A DNA stretch of 11,684 nucleotides, taken from assembly GCA_027021195.1 (NCBI GenBank), contig JALUUW010000029.1, forward strand, positions 1 to 11,684, written 5' to 3'. This stretch comes from Candidatus Pacearchaeota archaeon (GTDB lineage Archaea; Nanobdellota; Nanobdellia; Pacearchaeales; GW2011-AR1). The position numbers were made by a program, and so were the translations under genes. Each line of letters opens with the position of its first letter. Position 1 is the stretch's first letter. Below are positions 858-10,645 of the stretch, one piece after another. The notes under the pieces were generated by a model. The model ran no database searches. It was not told the DNA's origin and saw only the letters and a program-made list of their open reading frames with translations.

Positions 858-1043
858 ATGGGAAAAATCGTTGCTAAGAGTGTTGTTACAAGGAAGCCAG
901 GGTATCTTTACTATGTAGATGCAAAAGGAAATGTCTGTGAAGCAAAAATGGCTCGTGGCGGAAAAAAGAAAAAATCTTCCAAGAAGAAAGCCGCTAAGAA
1001 AACAACAAAGAAAAAAGCAGCAAAGAAGAAAAAAAAGAGATAA
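858..1043 (+). CDS. small basic protein with Lys/Ala-rich C-terminal tail (putative nucleic-acid-binding; no family recognised)
   Basis: 61 aa. The N-terminal ~34 aa look like a small beta-rich module (KSVVTRKPGYLYYVDAKGNVCEAKMARGG). This is followed by a 27-aa tail, KKKKSSKKKAAKKTTKKKAAKKKKKR. It has a strong SD and is followed by T-rich terminator-like tracts. Confidence 0.75.
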   Translation: MGKIVAKSVVTRKPGYLYYVDAKGNVCEAKMARGGKKKKSSKKKAAKKTTKKKAAKKKKKR

Positions 1044-2937: not shown

Positions 2938-3189
2938 ATGGTTAAGGGGGACTTTCAGGACATATTAGAAAGTGCATTGGGTCTGGAAACAGAAGATGAA
3001 AAGGCACTTGAAGGCCTGGCAGGAGGAGCAAGATTTTATGTCTTGGAGATTAATACAGAAGGCAAAAAAAATCCGGAAGAATATGTCAATAGAATCATTG
3101 AGTCTCTGAAAAGCGAAGGATACAAAGTCCCTATGACTCGGGCAGATGGAGACATTTATCATATTCACATTACACAACAACTGAATTAA
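2938..3189 (+). CDS. hypothetical acidic 83-aa protein embedded in the ribosomal-protein operon
   Basis: The ATG lies 1 nt after the S28e stop (TGAgATG), and its own stop lies 1 nt before the L24e ATG (TAAaATG). Composition is non-repetitive, with a predicted beta-alpha-beta-beta pattern (FYVLEI / PEEYVNRIIESLKSEGY / KVPMTR / DIYHIHI). I recognise no family. Confidence 0.65.
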   Translation: MVKGDFQDILESALGLETEDEKALEGLAGGARFYVLEINTEGKKNPEEYVNRIIESLKSEGYKVPMTRADGDIYHIHITQQLN

Positions 3190-3403: not shown

Positions 3404-3444
3404 GATTTCTGAAGCAGAGCATTAAGTTTTTGTTAGAAAAGAGG

Positions 3445-3939
3445 ATGGTGAAAAAAAACAGCAAAAACAAGAAGAAATCCAATCAGCAAAGCAGGTCTTC
3501 TCTGGATTTTGCCAAACCAGTAACAGGATTAAACCTTAGATTTTATATTTTTCTTTTTTTGGCTATTAGTGTTATTTCATCTTTTTTTTCAGTATTTATT
3601 CTGTTTTCAAAGCCTTTAGAAATAAAGGAAGTTGATGCAAAGTTTATTATAGGAGAGAATCCGGGGTTTGACCTAAATTCGAGCGCGCTTGTTTTCGGAA
3701 GGATTCCTCCGGGAGGATCATCAACAAGAAAGGTAGTCATTGACAATAGTTTTAGCTTTCCAATTGAGGTGAAGATTCTCGCAAGCAGGAATATTGCGGA
3801 ATTTGTTATTGCTCAGCCTGTTACAATCATTGAGGCAGGGAAAAATGCCTCTATTCCAATAAGCGTTTACATTCCGCAGGACAATGGATTTGGGGATTAT
3901 TACGGGAAAATCCGGTTTGAAATCTATAAGTCATCTTAA
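3445..3939 (+). CDS. membrane-anchored protein with extracellular beta-sandwich-like domain (PapD/ASH-like pattern), function unknown
   Basis: A basic N-terminus (MVKKNSKNKKKSNQQSR) is followed by one TM helix (LRFYIFLFLAISVISSFFSVFILF). A ~100-aa domain then shows the alternating pattern LVFGRIPPGGSSTRKVVIDNSFSFPIEVKI...IEAGKNASIPISVYIP...GDYYGKIRFEI, typical of Ig-like sandwiches. The track start at 3430 is a TTG; I prefer ATG 3445, but the start is uncertain. Confidence 0.7.
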   Translation: MVKKNSKNKKKSNQQSRSSLDFAKPVTGLNLRFYIFLFLAISVISSFFSVFILFSKPLEIKEVDAKFIIGENPGFDLNSSALVFGRIPPGGSSTRKVVIDNSFSFPIEVKILASRNIAEFVIAQPVTIIEAGKNASIPISVYIPQDNGFGDYYGKIRFEIYKSS

Positions 3940-3972
3940 GTTTAGTTGCACAGGCAATCAATACAAGAAGTT

Positions 3973-3980
3973 TTTTATAT
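3973..3980 (+). promoter_or_regulatory. TATA-like box (TTTTATAT) for the large surface-protein gene
   Basis: Centre lies 24.5 nt upstream of ATG 4001. This supports 4001 as the real start rather than 3884. Confidence 0.4.
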
Positions 3981-4000
3981 GGGCTTTTCATTTTATTGAA

Positions 4001-6004
4001 ATGAGAAAGACGGTGATTGTTTTAATGAGCTTGTTTATATTGCTTAATCTTTTTATTGTGATTCTCAGCTTTTATTCCCTTAAACCTTCGTCCCTAAGAA
4101 ACTCTTCCGGAACACTAATTACTGGCAGGGGAACTTCGGGGACTGTCGGCCTGGTTATTCTCGGGCCTGAGTTAAATGTGTTTATACACAGCCCTGAAAA
4201 TATCACTTATAACTTCAGCATAGGAGACGATTACATTATTGATTTGAATGTCTCTGCTGATTTTACAGTTGATACTTGGTGGTACAAACTGGAAGACCTT
4301 CGGCACGGCACAACAGTTAATGAGAGCGTTGTCTTTACCCCGAATGACACTATTAATGCTGTAAGGTGGTCAAATAAGATAACTGTCTTTGCAAATGACT
4401 CTTCAGGAAGCTCGGCAAGTTCCAGCGTGATTTTTTTTGTTTCTGTTCCAAACAGCGCTCCTGTTTTAGGGGCAATTGATGATGGGATTTTTGTATGCGA
4501 ATCAAATTCACTTTCTTACTCATTTAGCGCATCAGATGCTGATGAGGATGACCTTACTGCAGACATCAGCCCGAAAAATCCTTTTTTTGTATCTTCTCCA
4601 ACAAGAATTAATCTCACTACAGTCATCTCATCAATTTTCTCAGGAAATCTGACAAAAAGCGATGTTGGAATATACTCTGAGGTAGTATCTGTTTCTGACG
4701 GAGAGTATGTTGATACTAAAAATACAAATATAACTGTTATTGAAATTAACAATGCCCCTTCAGTTGAGAATGTAGGGGTTCAGACAATTTACACACAAGG
4801 AGATAACAGCACTTTCTACAAAGAGGTTCAGGTTAGTGATGTAGAAAACGGAAATCAGAGTTCAGGAAACTTTACATTTAACCTCACATTCCTTAACGGA
4901 AACAAATTCTTTGATATCACTCAATTTGGAGTTATGAATGTCAGTGGGAACGACAGCATAATAGGGGTTTACAATCTTAGTCTTTGCGTGACTGACAAGG
5001 CTATTGAAAACATACACCAAAACATAAGCCTTTGCGGACAAGACGGGCTAAACCAGACAGTGTGCCAGAACTTCAGTCTGACTGTGACTGATGAAAACAG
5101 GGCGCCTACTATTACAAACTACTATCCATCTAATTTTTCATTAAGCATTTCTGGAACAGGAACGCTCTCCTTTAATATAACAAAATACGATCCTGACGGA
5201 ACAATTCCAGATACATACTGGTATGTTGACGGCTTTCTTAAAGAATATGATTCAGGCAGCTCTTATGACAAGTTTGAATACAGCTTTGGTTGCGGAGTTT
5301 CTGGAACTCATACTATTAAAGCAGAGATAACTGACGGATTACTGAATGATTCGGTTGAATGGACTGTAAGTGTTGAAAGAGTTCAATGCCCTCTTCCTTC
5401 TGAAGGAGGCGGGGGAGGTGGAGGCGGCGGAATAGAGGGCTGTGCCACTAACTGGGCTTGTGATACTTGGGAAGTGTGCCAGAATGCAAAGGCAAGTTTG
5501 GAAATAGGTCTTTTGTCAGGAGAGGATTACAGAACTGTTAAGGACTCTTGTTTGGAGCAAAATCTTGATGATTCATCCTGCGGTGTCCAAATAAGAAAAT
5601 GTTTTGACTTAAATTCATGCAATTCAAGCGCAGGGCAGCCTCCAGAGTTTCAGGGATGTTATTATCTTGAAAAACCAAGCTGTTTTGACAATGTTAAGAA
5701 CTGTCACGATGGAGATTGTGAGTTGCTTGTTGATTGCGGAGGCCCATGCGATCCATGCCCGACTTGCTCTGACGGCATACAAAACCAGGGGGAGCAGGAT
5801 GTTGATTGCGGAGGCCCATGCCCATGGAAATGCCCTGCTGAAAAACCCCTTCAAGCAAACAAAATTCAAGTAGTCCTTTTCTGGTCTATTCTTATAATGC
5901 TGGTATTATTGGCAATCATCAAGGTCATAAAGATTGTTAAACTGAGGGAGAAGCTGATTCAAATAAAAAGAAACATAATGAAAAATGAAATTAATGAATT
6001 ATAG
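4001..6004 (+). CDS. large modular cell-surface protein: signal/TM, Ig/cadherin/PKD-like repeats, Gly9 hinge, Cys-rich stalk, C-terminal TM anchor
   Basis: 667 aa from ATG 4001 (MRKTVIVLMSLFILLNLFIVILSFYSL). The ectodomain has ~100-115-aa modules ending in N-x-A-P (NSAP 4451-4462, NNAP 4748-4759, NRAP 5096-5107). One segment is PKD-like (YDPDGTIPDTYWYVDG...GTHTIKAEITDG). I count 24 N-x-S/T sequons by hand. Gly9 lies at 5405-5431. There are 19 Cys between 5387 and 5833, including two VDCGGPC motifs. The TM helix VVLFWSILIMLVLLAIIKVIKIV is followed by a basic tail. Confidence 0.85.
   Translation: MRKTVIVLMSLFILLNLFIVILSFYSLKPSSLRNSSGTLITGRGTSGTVGLVILGPELNVFIHSPENITYNFSIGDDYIIDLNVSADFTVDTWWYKLEDLRHGTTVNESVVFTPNDTINAVRWSNKITVFANDSSGSSASSSVIFFVSVPNSAPVLGAIDDGIFVCESNSLSYSFSASDADEDDLTADISPKNPFFVSSPTRINLTTVISSIFSGNLTKSDVGIYSEVVSVSDGEYVDTKNTNITVIEINNAPSVENVGVQTIYTQGDNSTFYKEVQVSDVENGNQSSGNFTFNLTFLNGNKFFDITQFGVMNVSGNDSIIGVYNLSLCVTDKAIENIHQNISLCGQDGLNQTVCQNFSLTVTDENRAPTITNYYPSNFSLSISGTGTLSFNITKYDPDGTIPDTYWYVDGFLKEYDSGSSYDKFEYSFGCGVSGTHTIKAEITDGLLNDSVEWTVSVERVQCPLPSEGGGGGGGGGIEGCATNWACDTWEVCQNAKASLEIGLLSGEDYRTVKDSCLEQNLDDSSCGVQIRKCFDLNSCNSSAGQPPEFQGCYYLEKPSCFDNVKNCHDGDCELLVDCGGPCDPCPTCSDGIQNQGEQDVDCGGPCPWKCPAEKPLQANKIQVVLFWSILIMLVLLAIIKVIKIVKLREKLIQIKRNIMKNEINEL
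5728..5821 (+). repeat. 22-nt perfect direct repeat (5728-5749 and 5800-5821) encoding the duplicated VDCGGPC motif
   Basis: tgttgattgcggaggcccatgc occurs twice, exactly 72 nt (24 codons) apart, with different flanking bases on both sides. A diverged third copy (attgactgcggaggcaactgtc) lies at 6607-6628 in the next gene. Confidence 0.9.
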
Positions 6005-6926
6005 ACATTTTTTTTTCAGCCTGGTTTTTTTTATTTTGATTATAAGCCTTGCCAGCAGCAAAAGCTCTCCTATTCAGCCTGTAAGTGCAGAAGAAGGATG
6101 TTTTCCCCAATACGAGTGCGGAAACTGGAGCGAGTGCAATAACGATAGCATTCAAACAAGGGTTTGCACAGATAAAAGATGCAATAAAAAAGACATAGTT
6201 GAGAGAAAATTCTGCAATATTCCTAACTGCAAGCCGGCAATTGCCTGCAGCAACTGGAGCAGCTGCAACTACCAGAGAAAGATGAGCGATGTCCTAAGAG
6301 AGAGGCTTGTTTTTGAGGGATATCAGGAAAGAGAGTGCGTTGATTTAGGAGGATGCGCTGAAGAATGGACTGAAACAAGAAGCTGCAGCCTTTCTTTTCC
6401 TGTTGAAATAAAGAAAACAAAGTGGTGTTTTCAGGATTATGTGGAGATATTTGATCTGAATTCAAAAAGGCTTGTCGGGAGAATAACTGAATCAGGAATT
6501 GACAAGGATTTAGGGGCAAAAAGAGTGGATATTCTTTTTTTGACCTCAGACGAGGATGCCTATTGCGATTATTGTTTTGACGGAGTTAGAAATTATGACG
6601 AAACAGGAATTGACTGCGGAGGCAACTGTCCCGAATGCATTGAAAAGGCATATTTTTCTGACTGGCTGTCTTTGGCAATTGCAACTTCATGGCTTTCCTT
6701 TGCAATACTGCTAATCATTTTAATATGGAGCAAATCAAAAAGATATGCATTTTTTAGAGATTCATCTAAAAAAGAAATAGCCAAGAGGAGCATCAGGGAG
6801 AGGATTGCGGGCTTCATCAGAATGGCGAAGATAGGTACAGAAGAAGAGAGGATGCTTGAAGAAAAGATTAAAAAGATTATTGTCGAGAGCCTTTTGTTTT
6901 CAAAAAAGACAAAGGAAAAGCCATAA
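5985..6926 (+). CDS. Cys-rich type-I membrane protein sharing CxNWSxC and DCGGxCxxC modules with the upstream surface protein
   Basis: 313 aa with a signal-like N-terminus (FFFSLVFFILIISLASS). Motifs are CGNWSEC (6117-6137), CSNWSSC (6246-6266) and CFDGVRNYDETGIDCGGNCPEC (6573-6638). The last lies 7 aa before the TM helix WLSLAIATSWLSFAILLIILIW, which is followed by a ~70-aa Lys/Glu-rich cytoplasmic tail. The start overlaps the upstream gene by 20 nt; an alternative ATG is at 5994. Confidence 0.8.
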   Translation: MKLMNYRHFFFSLVFFILIISLASSKSSPIQPVSAEEGCFPQYECGNWSECNNDSIQTRVCTDKRCNKKDIVERKFCNIPNCKPAIACSNWSSCNYQRKMSDVLRERLVFEGYQERECVDLGGCAEEWTETRSCSLSFPVEIKKTKWCFQDYVEIFDLNSKRLVGRITESGIDKDLGAKRVDILFLTSDEDAYCDYCFDGVRNYDETGIDCGGNCPECIEKAYFSDWLSLAIATSWLSFAILLIILIWSKSKRYAFFRDSSKKEIAKRSIRERIAGFIRMAKIGTEEERMLEEKIKKIIVESLLFSKKTKEKP

Positions 6927-6934
6927 TATTTAAT

Positions 6935-7681
6935 TTAAAATGGCTGTCTCGGCATTGGAACAGGATTTCTGAAAGAAGTCAATATCTTTCTTATGATGAA
7001 TCTCGTATTAACAACATCAGAGATTATTGCTGTTAGCACCAGCCTTCCAACAACAACCTTAAATATGCCTTCTTGATAAGGTATTCTTGCAGCAACTGAA
7101 AAATTCTCTATTATTTGGGATATTTCCTCTTTACTCAAAATTATTCCGGTTTTTTTCATTCCTTTAGGAGTTATCACCTTTATATTCTCTTCAGGGCCGT
7201 CGCATTCAATAGATTTTACAAAAGGATCTGCTATGAGGGGGTTTAGCTTTCCAAGATTTATTGGAGTATCGGTAGGAATTGGTTTTAGGTATTGAAATCT
7301 TTGAGGAAGCTTTATGTCAGGAATCGTAAGCACCCTTCTTTTTCCAACCGGTTTTGGCGGAGCTATTAAAGGGTATTTTTTTTCTGTGTTTTTTGGAGAG
7401 GTGTTTTTGGCATAATTGAGTGTTTCTTTTTTTGGAGAGATTTTCTGTCTTATTATTTCCTCAAGCTCCTTTTTTTCATCAGCTTTTTTTTTCTTTTCTT
7501 CTTTCTTTTTTTCCCTGAGGATTCTCTCAAGCTCAAAAACTTCTTTTGTTTTTGAGTTTTTTATCAGTTCTTCTGTAAATTTAAGCAGAAAAAGGGTTCT
7601 AAACTCATTTGATGTTTGTTTGAGCATTTTACAGAGGACTGGTTTTAGGAGAGGATATTGATTTTCTGTACTCTTCTGCAT
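6935..7681 (-). CDS. stand-alone homologue of the N-terminal domain of FlaI/PilB (GspE/VirB11-type) secretion ATPases; no ATPase domain
   Basis: Residues 143-232 (nt 7255..6986) read LGKLNPLIADPFVKSIECDGPEENIKVITPKGMKKTGIILSKEEISQIIENFSVAARIPYQEGIFKVVVGRLVLTAIISDVVNTRFIIRK. This follows the T2SSE N-domain pattern (L..DP.vedIscdG...v.V....g...Tni.fs.EEl...i..la...g..i....P.vd..L..G.R........g..FtIRK). The ORF stops 16 aa later, before any Walker A motif. The probable real start is ATG 7627, 1 nt after the upstream stop. The longest ORF starts at 7681. Confidence 0.7.
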   Translation of the reverse strand: MQKSTENQYPLLKPVLCKMLKQTSNEFRTLFLLKFTEELIKNSKTKEVFELERILREKKKEEKKKKADEKKELEEIIRQKISPKKETLNYAKNTSPKNTEKKYPLIAPPKPVGKRRVLTIPDIKLPQRFQYLKPIPTDTPINLGKLNPLIADPFVKSIECDGPEENIKVITPKGMKKTGIILSKEEISQIIENFSVAARIPYQEGIFKVVVGRLVLTAIISDVVNTRFIIRKILTSFRNPVPMPRQPF

Positions 7682-8126
7682 CTGTTCCCTGTTCTTTTAC
7701 CATCCCATGAGGCGGGAAATTTCCAAATGGATTTACCACTCTTTGGGTAGGAGCAGATGTTTCTTCTTCAGGAATTTTTTCATGCATCAGTGCAATTCCT
7801 TTGGCAATTGTTTTGTTCTGCTCAAGAAGGCTATCTACTTTTTCAAGTATTTTTTTGCTGTCTTTATTGCTTTTATCCATACTGAAATCCTTTTCAGCCA
7901 GCGCCTTTGCGGATATTTCAAAAAGCTCAAGCAATTTTGAGATTTGATTTGCGAGGTTGTCAAAACTAATTGACAAATTAGTCATAACTTTCTGCAATGA
8001 AACAAAATTCTCTATAAGTATATTTTCTATTTTTTTTTCATGAGTGGAATCTGAATGAGAAGTTGTCCTGTGCACTCGCTCTCTTTTAGAAGTTGTTTTT
8101 TTTGAAAGCGTCCTCTTTTTTTTCAT
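7629..8126 (-). CDS. hypothetical coiled-coil protein with basic N-terminus
   Basis: 165 aa. The basic N-terminus MKKKRTLSKKTTSKRERVHR is followed by heptad-like helical segments (IENILIENFVSLQKVMTNLSISFDNLANQISKLLELFEISAKALAEK; ILEKVDSLLEQNKTIAKGIALMHEK) and a Pro/Gly-containing tail. Its stop is tightly coupled to the downstream ATG at 7627. Confidence 0.7.
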   Translation of the reverse strand: MKKKRTLSKKTTSKRERVHRTTSHSDSTHEKKIENILIENFVSLQKVMTNLSISFDNLANQISKLLELFEISAKALAEKDFSMDKSNKDSKKILEKVDSLLEQNKTIAKGIALMHEKIPEEETSAPTQRVVNPFGNFPPHGMVKEQGTDAEEYRKSISSPKTSPL

Positions 8127-8146
8127 AACTCTTAAAGGGGTTTATG

Positions 8147-8154
8147 ATTTAAAA
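8147..8154 (-). promoter_or_regulatory. TATA-like box (TTTTAAAT on minus strand) for the 8126 gene
   Basis: Centre lies 24.5 nt upstream of ATG 8126, inside the 41-nt spacer after the ppsA stop. Confidence 0.4.
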
Positions 8155-8167
8155 ACTCTTCGGAAAA

Positions 8168-10645
8168 TTAAAAGATATCCACTTTTTCACTGTTTTTCTC
8201 AGCGGCATTTTTTACACTGTCTTGCTTTTCAACACTTTCATTGGGATTTTCTATCCCTTCTCCCACTTCTTTTTTTGAGTATTTCAGAAGATGCTTATTT
8301 TCTTTTTCATTTTTCCAAGTGATTTTTCCACTACTCTCAGCACTGCTCTCATTTTCCAATTCTGCTATATAATCAGCAATATCTGCAGCAACGTCTGCGT
8401 TTACGCTTATGCTGTCAATCCCTTTTTCAATGAGGAATTTTACCATTGGCTTTTTGCTGCCGGCCTGACCGCAGATGCTTGTTTCAACATTATTTCTCTT
8501 GCATACTCTTATCACAAATTCCATTTGATGCAGCACTGCAGGATGCATTTCATCATAAAGGTGCTGAACATCCTCGTTTCCCCTGTCAACAGCGAGGATA
8601 TACTGGGTAAGGTCATTTGTTCCAAACGATATGAAATCAATTCCTTCTTCACAAAGGCTTTTTATAATTTGAACTGCAGCAGGAGTTTCTATCATAACAC
8701 CTACTTTTGCTTCAGTAAAACCTATTTCTTTAAGAAATTCCTTGACTTTCTTCAACTCATCCACCATGATAATCTGAGGAAGAAGCAATCCCACCTTTTT
8801 TCCGCTTTCTGAAACTCTCTTTAATGCTTTAAGCTCTGCTTTGAGTATTTCTGGGTTTTTTAAGCCATATCTTATTCCGTGCATTCCAAGCATTGGATTT
8901 GCCTCAATGTCTTTTGGAGCACCTTCAAGGTTCTCGTATTCATCGCTTCTTATGTCAGAAGTCCTTACCCATATCTCCTCAAAATAATCCGCGATGCTTT
9001 TAATTCCCTTAAAAATCACTTCTTCATAGTCATCCATTCTATTTTGGCTTAAAAAATATTCAGGGTGTTTTCCAGACTCAGCTATTATTCCCTCCATTCT
9101 TGTCAGCCCTACAGCCTTTACCTGTGTTTTTGACGCACGCTCAGCAAAATTCGGAAGGTCAACAACGACTTTTATTTTTGTCTTTGTTTTTGCGGTTACT
9201 GCCCTTATTTCTTTTTTTACGCTTTCAGAAACTCTTCCTTTGTAAATTCTTCCTGTAAAACCATCAACAGTTATTATTTCTCCTTCTTTGAGTCTTTTTG
9301 TTGCTTCTCCAGTCCCTACTATGCATGGAATGCCCATTTCTCTTGATACAATTGCAGCGTGAGCTGTAAGGCCTCCCTCATCAGTGACTATTGCTGCTGA
9401 TTTCTGCATGCTCACAACCATGTCCGGATTTGTCATCTCTGTTACAAGAATATCTCCTTCCTTTATTTTCTGCAAGTCCTCTTGTGTTCTAATAATTCTT
9501 ATTTTTCCAGAGGCAATTCCCGGAGACGCAGCAAGCCCCTCCAGAATTGCTTCTCCAGATATTTCTTTGACAGAATCGCCGTCAGAGAGGTCTATTCTTT
9601 TTTCTATAGTTGTTATTGGTCTTGTCTGGACAATGTAAACATCTTCATTCTCAATTGCAAATTCTATATCTTGTGGTTTCTTATAGTGGTCCTCCAACTG
9701 CAAGGCAAGCTGTGCAAGCCTTTTTATTTCATAATCACTGAGAACAGGGGACTTTGCTTTTTCTTCACGTAGCTTTACGATTGCTTTGTTTCCTCCAGAG
9801 TCTCTTGTTATTGCAATTTTCTTGTTTGATATTTTTTTATCAAGTATTTTTAGCTCTCTTGAAACAACATATTTGTCAGGAGTGATTTTTCCAGAAACAA
9901 TCCCCTCTCCAAGACCAAACACTGCCTCGAGTATTATGTTGTCATTTTTGTATGAAGGATCTTTTGAGAATATAACTCCTGATTTGTCAGAGTCAATCAT
10001 TTTTTGAACTACGACTGCAAGACTCGCCTCTTCATGCAGAAATCCTTTTTTGTTTCTGTAGTAGATTGCTCTGGAAGTGAATAAAGATGCAAAGCATTTT
10101 TTTATCTTTTTTATTAAATCATATCTTCCTTTGACATTTAAAAAAGAGTCTTGCTGCCCTGCAAAACTCGCCTCTGCCAAATCCTCTGTTGTTGCAGAGC
10201 TTCTGACAGCAACAAATATAGGTTCAGGGGTTTTTTTAAGAAGGTCGTGCGCTGTCTTCCCCTCAAGAGACTCGTCAATGTCAAGGCTTTCATATGCTTC
10301 AATAATTTCCTCCTCCATCTCACTCGGAAAACCCGAGTTAATAATGAGGGCTCTTATTTGCTCTGCAATCTCGTCAAGCTGCTTTGTATTTTCATAATCA
10401 ATTTTCTCAAGCAATTCCTTTATTTTTTTATCAAGCCCTGCTTTTTTGATGAAATATCTGTAAGCATGCGCTGTGACAACAAATCCCGGCGGCACCGGCG
10501 CTCCTGCATTATAGATTTCTGAGAGGTTTGCACCCTTTCCTCCTGCAACACTTCCAGAATCTTTGCTTAGTTCAGAAAACCATTTAACAAATTCCACTCT
10601 CTCAATATCATCCTTTGTTTTAGCGACCTCTTTTTCATTAAGCAT
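8168..10645 (-). CDS. ppsA: phosphoenolpyruvate synthase (pyruvate, water dikinase)
   Basis: 825 aa. It shows the N-terminal ATP-grasp motif VAGGKGANLSEI, the phosphohistidine swivel motif GGLTAHAAIVSREMGIPCIVG, and the PEP-utilising TIM-barrel motifs GMHGIRY, FISFGTNDLTQY and ICGQAGS. A ~60-aa low-complexity acidic/Lys tail is appended. Confidence 0.95.
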   Translation of the reverse strand: MLNEKEVAKTKDDIERVEFVKWFSELSKDSGSVAGGKGANLSEIYNAGAPVPPGFVVTAHAYRYFIKKAGLDKKIKELLEKIDYENTKQLDEIAEQIRALIINSGFPSEMEEEIIEAYESLDIDESLEGKTAHDLLKKTPEPIFVAVRSSATTEDLAEASFAGQQDSFLNVKGRYDLIKKIKKCFASLFTSRAIYYRNKKGFLHEEASLAVVVQKMIDSDKSGVIFSKDPSYKNDNIILEAVFGLGEGIVSGKITPDKYVVSRELKILDKKISNKKIAITRDSGGNKAIVKLREEKAKSPVLSDYEIKRLAQLALQLEDHYKKPQDIEFAIENEDVYIVQTRPITTIEKRIDLSDGDSVKEISGEAILEGLAASPGIASGKIRIIRTQEDLQKIKEGDILVTEMTNPDMVVSMQKSAAIVTDEGGLTAHAAIVSREMGIPCIVGTGEATKRLKEGEIITVDGFTGRIYKGRVSESVKKEIRAVTAKTKTKIKVVVDLPNFAERASKTQVKAVGLTRMEGIIAESGKHPEYFLSQNRMDDYEEVIFKGIKSIADYFEEIWVRTSDIRSDEYENLEGAPKDIEANPMLGMHGIRYGLKNPEILKAELKALKRVSESGKKVGLLLPQIIMVDELKKVKEFLKEIGFTEAKVGVMIETPAAVQIIKSLCEEGIDFISFGTNDLTQYILAVDRGNEDVQHLYDEMHPAVLHQMEFVIRVCKRNNVETSICGQAGSKKPMVKFLIEKGIDSISVNADVAADIADYIAELENESSAESSGKITWKNEKENKHLLKYSKKEVGEGIENPNESVEKQDSVKNAAEKNSEKVDIF

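Follow-up and report, generated by a model that had tools for sequence, protein, structure and literature searches.

What could three consecutive genes for hypothetical surface proteins be doing in an archaeon of the Pacearchaeota, and do these genes stand alone? Few uncultured archaea of groundwater and sediments are as abundant as Pacearchaeota and Woesearchaeota, and to our knowledge almost nothing is known about their envelopes and cell contacts. In this study, we analyzed 11,684 nucleotides of DNA from a Candidatus Pacearchaeota archaeon (GenBank assembly GCA_027021195.1, contig JALUUW010000029.1); "the window" below means this whole stretch. Three of its genes, here called g1, g2, and g3, had been proposed from the letters alone as a candidate adhesion or host-contact module. 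Our own answer, held tentatively and with somewhat less than even confidence, is that they are parts of a constitutive envelope assembly conserved in Pacearchaeota- and Woesearchaeota-type DPANN archaea, that is, a housekeeping scaffold or coat whose binding partners are conserved components of the cell itself. In this genome, the trio appears to have been split by rearrangement from its usual partners (a giant glycoprotein, a MoxR AAA+ ATPase, a DUF58 protein, and a BatA-like VWA protein), which lie about 7 kb upstream. A scaffold with conserved self partners is favored because the whole g2 ectodomain is conserved.

The window is low in GC (30–43%) and carries the archaeal housekeeping genes for Kae1, L7Ae, S28e, L24e, phosphoenolpyruvate (PEP) synthase, and LemA. 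It corresponds to locus L001, taken from a 31-kb metagenome contig, from position 6001 onward. The closest relatives of its proteins are labeled Pacearchaeota, Nanoarchaeota, or Woesearchaeota; the sequence-only reading had supposed a small-genome archaeon, and the best matches, labeled Pacearchaeota or Nanoarchaeota, point to a DPANN archaeon of that kind. The genes g1, g2, and g3 are consecutive on the same strand, and their products are all predicted to be extracytoplasmic. The gene models are as follows.

3445 to 3939, + strand: g1, 164 aa counted from the ATG (an upstream start of the open reading frame (ORF) is at 3430)
4001 to 6004, + strand: g2, 667 aa from the ATG at 4001 (upstream start at 3884)
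5985 to 6926, + strand: g3, 313 aa (310 aa from the alternative ATG at 5994)
5985 to 6004, + strand: overlap of g3 with g2, 20 nt (11 nt with the ATG at 5994); the TAG of g2 occupies 6002–6004

The start of g2 was placed at the ATG at 4001 and not at 3884 because its homologs support 4001. Topology was judged from hydropathy, the positive-inside rule, and the distribution of cysteines and N-x-S/T sequons. The first two place most of g1, g2, and g3 outside the cell, and every cysteine of g2 (24) and g3 (18) falls within the predicted ectodomains. The g2 protein contains 24 sequons where 8.9 would be expected for a protein of its composition, and none of 2,000 shuffles reached 24; the cytoplasmic proteins of the window have 0–3 each. 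ORFs, hydropathy, and the distributions of cysteines and sequons therefore agree with the earlier description of three same-strand genes for membrane-anchored surface proteins, the bulk of which is predicted to lie outside the cell. The three proteins and their homologs are annotated only as "hypothetical", and scans of g1–g3 and of the two neighboring genes g4 and g5 returned no Pfam or NCBIfam model at the cut-off. No tRNA, Rfam family, or tandem DNA repeat was found across the region.

The protein g2 carries most of the argument. A word-indexed search retrieved at least 471 homologs, which are 48–70% identical over the full length, nearly all 620–700 aa long, and in no case functionally named. 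We regard g2 as a predicted type-I membrane glycoprotein and the founding member of a conserved family of approximately 650–670 aa. An AlphaFold2 model based on a 113-sequence alignment has a mean predicted local distance difference test (pLDDT) score of 84. The regions of the protein are listed below.

4007 to 4162, + strand: leader, with a hydrophobic helix (residues 3–25), a disordered linker, and an "ITG..G.V.L.I" segment (residues 38–54)
4163 to 5386, + strand: four tandem beta-sandwich domains (residues 55–150, 151–250, 251–365, and 366–462), pLDDT mostly above 90
5387 to 5437, + strand: glycine-rich hinge (G9), conserved in the family, with pLDDT below 50 at residues 467–478
5438 to 5836, + strand: cysteine-rich stalk, with a CxxWxxC...QxRxCxD domain (residues 480–560) followed by two DCGGxC repeats (residues 561–612)
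5861 to 6001, + strand: transmembrane (TM) helix (residues 621–643) and Lys/Arg-rich cytoplasmic tail, modeled as one long TM/tail helix

By hydropathy, the two hydrophobic segments of g2 fall at residues 4–22 and 622–640. Residues 27–51 of the leader have pLDDT values below 50. The four immunoglobulin-like (Ig) beta-sandwich domains form the rod of the protein, and 23 of the 24 sequons sit within or just ahead of them. Domains 2 and 3 are cadherin-like and contain the linker motifs DADED, EINNAP, DVENGN, DENRAP, YDPDG, and ITDG. The family profile matches the extracellular cadherin (EC) repeats of protocadherin-15 (E 2.9e-9, profile positions 119–333), and the linkers align with the EC motifs of the xxDxG, DxD, and "VxVxDxNDNxP" types, which here read ISVSDG, DADED, and VIEINNAP. 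With the g2 model as a query, Foldseek returned tandem Ig and cadherin arrays at E values of 1e-13 to 1e-15. As a single sequence, g2 stays below the Pfam cut-off for Cadherin_4 (15.8 vs 25.1 bits), and precomputed PF17803/PF17963 matches are present in one g2 homolog. The invariant acidic, Asn, and Pro columns of the alignment are D179, D181, E182, N250, P253, D280, E282, N366, P369, D397, D399, and D445. A sub-threshold match of g2 to a myxosortase-M36 model was set aside, as it corresponds to the cadherin-like stretch. In the stalk, the domain at residues 480–560 is modeled with pLDDT 84–93, and the DCGGxC repeats (motifs at residues 579 and 603, and at residue 211 in g3) are approximately 25 aa each with the pattern CxxCxDGxxNxxExxxDCGGxC.

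Conservation is spread evenly over the ectodomain, with no hypervariable tip or variable distal domain. Identity to the g2 of the window is 53–63% in the Ig domains and highest, at 76%, in the DCGG repeats; all 24 cysteines are invariant or nearly so, and 13 of the 24 sequons are retained in at least 70% of the members. The TM helix and tail are always present, with poorly conserved sequence (23–27% identity). Compared within the same genome pairs, g2 (50–55% identity) ranks roughly level with the VWA and DUF58 proteins in conservation, below Kae1, PEP synthase, and MoxR, and above g1, g4, and g5. Such uniform conservation would not be expected of a variable recognition protein, and the "variable ectodomain" of the sequence-only reading does not hold for a protein with 53–76% identity per domain across at least 471 full-length homologs. 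Some genomes have two or three g2 paralogs, at L013, L037, and L047 in one metagenome-assembled genome (MAG) and at L009 and L041 in another (L numbers denote loci). Shortened paralogs of 545–583 aa that lack the first Ig domain also occur.

The gene neighborhood was compared across 79 species-representative loci with a g2 homolog; the fractions given here count the loci with enough flank. The recurring order is a LamG giant (~740 aa), proteins of 163, 400, 63, ~210, and 373 aa, g1, g2, a giant cadherin-like glycoprotein, MoxR, DUF58, and a BatA-like VWA protein. The gene g1 lies directly 5′ of g2 in 23 of 60 loci, and the giant glycoprotein, approximately 1,300–1,400 aa in the relatives, is the first gene 3′ of g2 in 33 of 51 loci; the giant glycoprotein and MoxR are both present in 25/45. 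The order is unchanged in the Woesearchaeota-labeled loci L053–L064, and in L002 the cluster is on a single strand with intergenic gaps of 2–82 nt. Judged from gene order, g1 and g2 are core members of an approximately 12-gene locus conserved across Pacearchaeota and Woesearchaeota. The trio is not a self-contained module: g1 and g2 belong to a locus that ends with the giant glycoprotein and MoxR-DUF58-VWA, and g3 is sporadic. Asked whether the three genes are conserved, variable, or expanded among relatives, the comparison gives a separate answer for each, namely g1 and g2 conserved, g3 optional, and g2 duplicated in some genomes.

On the contig of the window (31 kb, numbered as locus L084), the two parts of the locus are separated.

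L084 1830 to 8853: giant glycoprotein-MoxR-DUF58-VWA, on the same contig and upstream of the window (MoxR-DUF58-VWA at 5973–8853)
L084 12987 to 16468: g1-g2-g3

The giant glycoprotein of this contig is a cadherin-like protein of 1,375 aa with 106 sequons. The BatA-like protein combines BatA_N and VWA domains and has a basic loop between its first two TM helices, a DSSKS metal ion-dependent adhesion site (MIDAS) motif, and a C-terminal TM helix; from these features, the VWA domain is predicted to face outward. Ten genes part the VWA module from g2, including a 360-aa minus-strand ORF, DUF192, K61, Kae1, four small genes of the ribosomal cluster, and g1. After the VWA module, the order is DUF192-K61-Kae1-L7Ae-S28e-p83-L24e and then g1-g2-g3. 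L024 and L038 have DUF192-K61(-Kae1) right after the VWA gene, so that the simplest history is that g1-g2(-g3) moved approximately 7 kb downstream.

The third gene, g3, proved to be related to the stalk of g2. Its regions (residue numbers of the 313-aa protein) are as follows.

Residues ~9–27, + strand: predicted signal peptide, from hydropathy
Residues 39–134, + strand: two or three CxxWxxC modules
Residues ~139–190, + strand: small beta domain
Residues 194–218, + strand: DCGGxC repeat, one copy
Residues 229–251, + strand: TM helix (residues 229–247 by hydropathy, which leaves a 66-aa tail), followed by a helical cytoplasmic tail of 62 aa

BLASTP aligned g3 with g2 at E 3.9e-5, and the profile-profile comparison with hhalign indicated that residues 79–250 of g3 are homologous to residues 478–642 of g2 (probability 99.3%, E 1.6e-20). 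This homology makes g3 a stalk-plus-anchor paralog of g2 that has no Ig rod and a longer helical cytoplasmic tail. The sequence-only reading had described the cysteine modules of the two proteins as shared and rare; they are shared, as the hhalign result demonstrates, but not rare. The word-indexed search had found only 3–4 relatives each for g1 and g3 (4 for g3), which made both look like orphans, an impression overturned by an exhaustive search and by tblastn and jackhmmer on related loci. For g3, the exhaustive search yielded 1,597 representative protein clusters at E ≤ 1e-3 and 94 at E ≤ 1e-30. Residues ~35–250, which comprise the whole ectodomain and the TM helix, recur as a C-terminal cassette of proteins of 240–3,379 aa, and small stand-alone proteins also carry them. 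The unit CxxCxDGxxNxDExGxDCGGxCxxC (~25 aa) occurs in 1–6 copies before the C-terminal TM helix in many Woesearchaeota- or Altiarchaeota-labeled proteins, and DCGGxC arrays reach 39 copies in an unannotated protein (P0132). From this distribution in sequence searches, the cysteine module is among the commonest C-terminal cassettes of predicted DPANN surface proteins.

The same repeat was seen in three bacterial proteins (P0128, annotated as Chitinophagales, P0150, and P0172), each with 12–32 matched DCGGxC stretches and all with a terminal Por_Secre_tail domain of the type IX secretion system (T9SS); the repeat is therefore common to bacteria and archaea. Pfam has no model for the DCGGxC repeat, g3 belongs to no Pfam or NCBIfam family, and Foldseek gave no significant PDB match for the g3 fold. 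The CxxWSxC...QxRxC pattern in g3 and in the g2 stalk is reminiscent of thrombospondin type 1 repeats (TSRs), a likeness that serves as a lead and not as membership. The identification of the CxxWxxC modules as TSRs was rejected: the top Foldseek hits were the TSRs of semaphorin-5A with E 0.08 and probability 0.41, and Pfam TSP_1 was not matched.

Several lines of evidence connect g3 with g2. The start of g3 inside the end of g2 suggests translational coupling. Coupled expression had been proposed in the sequence-only reading, and the comparison strengthens the link between the two genes, which overlap in four genomes and are fused in others. Genes like g3 separate g2 from the giant glycoprotein gene in L037 and L087 and come after g2 in L085 and L086, with an 11-nt overlap in L037, overlap or abutment in L085, and a 2-nt gap in L086. 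An in-frame g2::g3 fusion is encoded in L088 (P0092) and is itself followed by the giant glycoprotein-MoxR-DUF58-VWA set. In three more proteins of approximately 910 aa, g2 is fused to an extra TM helix and the middle module of g3. These fusions are topologically consistent, with both ectodomains outside, and provide Rosetta-stone evidence that g2 and g3 act together. Among the relatives, g3 is a sporadic and optional member of the locus, and it diverges much faster than g2: the identities are 43–46% for g3 vs 70% for g2 encoded on one and the same contig, and 31% vs 56% on another.

The tail of g3 has a recognizable pattern. At residues ~270–300 (window ~6790–6885), the motif "S/T-x-EE-x-R-x-x-EEKI" is common to the closest homologs P0122, P0129, P0130, and P0175, and g3 subfamilies beyond these have a different helical tail. 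A partner in the cytoplasm may dock at this motif. One further element was read by eye ahead of g2.

3972 to 3980, + strand: possible archaeal TATA box, TTTTTATAT, 21–29 nt 5′ of the g2 ATG

If TTTTTATAT is real, g2 could possibly have its own promoter and a near-leaderless mRNA.

The first gene of the trio encodes a small anchored Ig protein with two regions.

3547 to 3603, + strand: TM helix of g1 (residues 35–53, from hydropathy), preceded by a strongly basic N-terminus
Residues ~60–160 of g1, + strand: extracytoplasmic ASH/PapD-like Ig domain, from the family profile

Against the PDB, the profile of the g1 family picks out FAP65 and Hydin through their ASH domains (E 6e-10), and 3–7 of 26 family members match the Pfam Ig families ASH, Cep192_D4, and HYDIN_VesB. 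Residues F84, G85, and N101, which belong to the ASH signature L-x-FG...N, are invariant or nearly so. On these grounds, g1 is a predicted membrane-anchored ASH-type Ig domain. Its homologs are 29–42% identical and are encoded immediately 5′ of g2 in many relatives. The comparison of g1 with the first domain of the 373/400-aa membrane Ig family, encoded just upstream in relatives, gave an hhalign probability of 82% (E 1e-5), and the two are probably akin. Two signs of pilin-like proteins were examined and dismissed. The candidate class III (pilin) signal of g1, "PVTG|LNL", lacks a charged residue at position −2, and the motif is entirely missing from the homologs. The match of g3 to PF18895 T4SS_pilin (18.2 vs 26.6 bits) covers the TM helix alone and is an artefact. 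Pfam and NCBIfam scans of g1–g3 yielded no pilin, archaellin, or classical S-layer family, as the sequence-only reading had anticipated.

We propose the following mechanism for the envelope assembly. The ectodomain of g2 would form an N-glycosylated rod of approximately 20 nm, stiffened by Ca2+ and standing on a cross-linked cysteine stalk. The g3 protein would be made in step with g2 and pair side by side with the homologous g2 stalk, adding a longer cytoplasmic tail, while g1 and the related 373/400-aa Ig proteins would be placed at the membrane face. The outward MIDAS/VWA domain of the BatA-like protein could bind the acidic glycoproteins, and the cytoplasmic MoxR and DUF58 proteins might help to put the complex together or to reshape it, a role that MoxR-VWA pairs have in other systems. 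Several points weigh against this scheme. Ca2+ binding by g2 is deduced from linker motifs with Asn or Glu at some positions where Asp is canonical, and the DCGG repeats are modeled at low confidence (pLDDT below 50). The link to MoxR-DUF58-VWA consists of gene order only, and the linkage of g2 to this module is broken here and in L005, L006, L013, L014, L016, L040, and L085. An evenly conserved ectodomain is still compatible with a conserved host ligand, and we know of no function for the Bat operon, a bacterial system that is the closest analog.

The resemblance to the Bat operon lies in the cluster normally found 3′ of g2, which contains MoxR (AAA_3, bpMoxR), DUF58, and BatA_N+VWA proteins in the same order, with co-encoded membrane-anchored Ig-like proteins and a VWA domain predicted to face outward. 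For the Borrelia protein BB0173, a homolog of the BatA-like protein, the VWA domain is periplasmic (PMC5700661). Unlike the Bat operon, the present cluster is archaeal and its proteins have no Pfam matches to BatB, BatC (TPR), BatD (PF13584), or BatE (SH3); the partners are cadherin-like N-glycoproteins with Cys-repeat stalks, and g1–g3 are not adjacent to the module in this genome. The bifidobacterial PFNA operon also places a membrane-anchored fibronectin type III (FN3) surface protein with MoxR and DUF58, and in addition encodes a transglutaminase (PMC8430577). It differs in being bacterial and in lacking a Cys stalk, and where the present cluster has the VWA protein, it has a kinase and a transglutaminase. 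The EC repeats of cadherins and protocadherins and the bacterial cadherin-like domains (PF17803, Big_9) are further counterparts of g2, which has the tandem beta-sandwich fold and the aligned linker motifs of the EC repeats. However, the g2 linkers are modified (EINNAP and DENRAP), only domains 2 and 3 match, and the stalk, TM helix, and tail of g2 are unrelated to animal cadherins.

Integrin heterodimers, invoked here as an analogy only, have a similar set of parts: they depend on divalent cations, cross the membrane with single TM helices that end in short basic tails, and carry a VWA/MIDAS ectodomain, Ig-like "legs", and a stalk of tandem Cys-rich repeats. No homology was shown, the corresponding parts are separate polypeptides in another arrangement, and the partner in the cytoplasm is an AAA+ ATPase. 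A bolder proposal along these lines is an inside-out adhesion machine in which a MoxR/DUF58 motor, acting via the outward VWA domain, would switch the conformation or clustering of the stalked g2, g3, and giant glycoproteins and so regulate attachment to other cells; in a variant, g2 would anchor a new donor-strand-exchange fiber. We regard this proposal as quite improbable.

Host contact is what the sequence-only reading suggested for the trio, and in its full form this explanation has g2, together with g3 and g1, projecting from the DPANN cell and using its cadherin-like domains to bind a host cell surface. Ca2+-type cadherin-like repeats are classic adhesion modules, the lineage of the organism has reduced genomes, and the wider cluster of the relatives includes the LamG-domain giant; g3 evolves fast, and two or three g2 paralogs can be present in a genome, as in the MAG with L013, L037, and L047. 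We nevertheless consider a host-contact adhesin unlikely. The g2 ectodomain is evenly conserved, with no variable distal domain, across an order-level group from many habitats, and when a given pair of genomes is compared, it is conserved to much the same degree as the VWA and DUF58 proteins. The fast-evolving g3 has only a stalk-like ectodomain, and no link leads from these genes to any host. Host-specific recognition in particular is disfavored by the uniform conservation of g2, and no result showed a host-contact role. An S-layer lattice protein or stalk, comparable to SlaB under SlaA in Sulfolobales, is very improbable as the identity of g2 (with g3), even though g2 is sequon-enriched, anchored at its C-terminus, built of Ig-like domains, conserved, and probably abundant. 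No S-layer family (e.g., PF05124 S_layer_C or PF04122) is matched by g1–g3, and S-layer proteins usually diverge far faster than 50–70% identity across an order would imply. The close relative at L085, whose g2 is 63–65% identical, encodes a separate 830-aa PF05124 S_layer_C protein (12036–14528) 2.5 kb from g1-g2-g3. The lineage therefore has a canonical S-layer gene, and g2 as the S-layer protein was rejected.

The genes upstream of g1 in relatives raise a different possibility, to which we give about the same low likelihood as to the host adhesin: g2 may be the membrane anchor of a tafi- or TasA-like donor-strand-exchange fiber built by these genes. Once its leader has been cleaved, g2 would complete the last subunit with its N-terminal "TG..G.V.L.I" strand and so tie the fiber to the membrane, with g1 as a membrane-bound chaperone, and the upstream parts would be the LamG giant, the ~210-aa secreted proteins, the 373/400-aa Ig proteins with C-terminal TM helices, and sometimes a SipW-type peptidase. 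The neighborhood in the relatives recalls the parts list of the haloarchaeal tat-fimbriae (tafi): it has a "tip-like" protein with LamG, secreted proteins of ~200 aa, Ig proteins anchored in the membrane, and in some cases a SipW-type peptidase. TafC is the tip adhesin of that system (PMC11821415). The order 740(LamG)-163-400-63-219-373-g1-g2 is conserved, and the upstream genes are also present in the close relative L085. The LamG protein matches TafC at E 5e-5, and its C-terminus resembles the 219 (~210-aa) family; the TafC match, however, rests on the generic LamG domain. A SipW-type signal peptidase gene adjoins g2 in L006 (TIGR02228, E 6e-17), and ORFs of ~155–165 aa near g2 in L005 and L013 are SipW-like by sequence motif only, but neither the window nor most loci have such a peptidase. 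A leader with a TG strand is shared by g2 and the 219 family (hhalign of the first 60 residues: probability 87.6%, E 3.5e-6), although this profile match spans the hydrophobic helix, which inflates the scores. Across L002–L083, "[ILV]TG" with an alternating hydrophobic strand 5–15 residues after an N-terminal helix occurs in 20% of helix-bearing ORFs vs 3.5% of others; the carriers include the g2 family (residues 38–54, window 4112–4162), the ~210-aa family, and signal-peptidase-like ORFs. The segment is unstructured in the g2 monomer model; processing might take place there, or it might act as a donor strand. The PapD-like/ASH fold of g1 and its relation to the first domain of the 373/400 family would suit a chaperone, but this fold, as a common variant of the Ig domain, does not imply one. 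The 219 family showed no similarity to TasA, AbpA, or tafi subunits, no PDB match at E ≤ 5, and no relevant Pfam match, and the 373/400 family gave at most weak WxLIP_HBD and CARDB matches against the PDB and Pfam. Tat motifs are lacking, g2 is far larger than TafF, and the small proteins are unlike TafA, TasA, and AbpA. In addition, the fiber-like genes are all missing from the present 31-kb contig.

Other genes of the window yielded separate observations. Downstream of the trio, g4 (248 aa) and g5 (165 aa) occupy 6935–8126 on the minus strand, convergent on g3; both products are probably cytoplasmic, and g5 is coiled-coil-like. In L006 and L040, homologs of both are found no more than 2 kb from g2, in different arrangements. 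A link of g4 and g5 to the archaellum was dismissed, as the NCBIfam match of g4 to the FlaI N-terminal model was weak (E 0.0045) and uncorroborated by the PDB and Pfam. Between S28e and L24e, an 83-aa acidic ORF (p83, window 2938–3189) had no counterpart in relatives by tblastn, and S28e and L24e are adjacent in L009; p83 may have been inserted into this conserved ribosomal-protein cluster in one lineage only. K61 (window 858–1043) encodes 61 aa with the Lys-rich tail KKKKSSKKKAAKKTTKKKAAKKKKKR, is 60–86% identical among relatives, and always lies between the DUF192 gene and Kae1; our searches gave no family assignment for it.

The kinds of domain found here, namely cadherin-like, ASH, and the Bat-like module, are known already. 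The g2 family, the Cys-repeat cassette, and their association with MoxR-DUF58-VWA appear to be undescribed in Pfam, NCBIfam, and the searchable literature, and our literature search found no description of the locus. From three "hypothetical proteins", the analysis derives a system that is defined and open to testing, with a conserved family of cadherin-like glycoproteins of approximately 660 aa. The Cys-repeat stalk-and-anchor cassette is uncatalogued yet widespread, with at least 1,597 protein clusters and tandem arrays in T9SS proteins of Bacteroidota. The conserved link between the glycoproteins and MoxR-DUF58-VWA offers a handle on the role of Bat-type modules, including those of bacteria, and the families are concrete targets for metaproteomics, labeling in cryo-electron tomography, and structural work.

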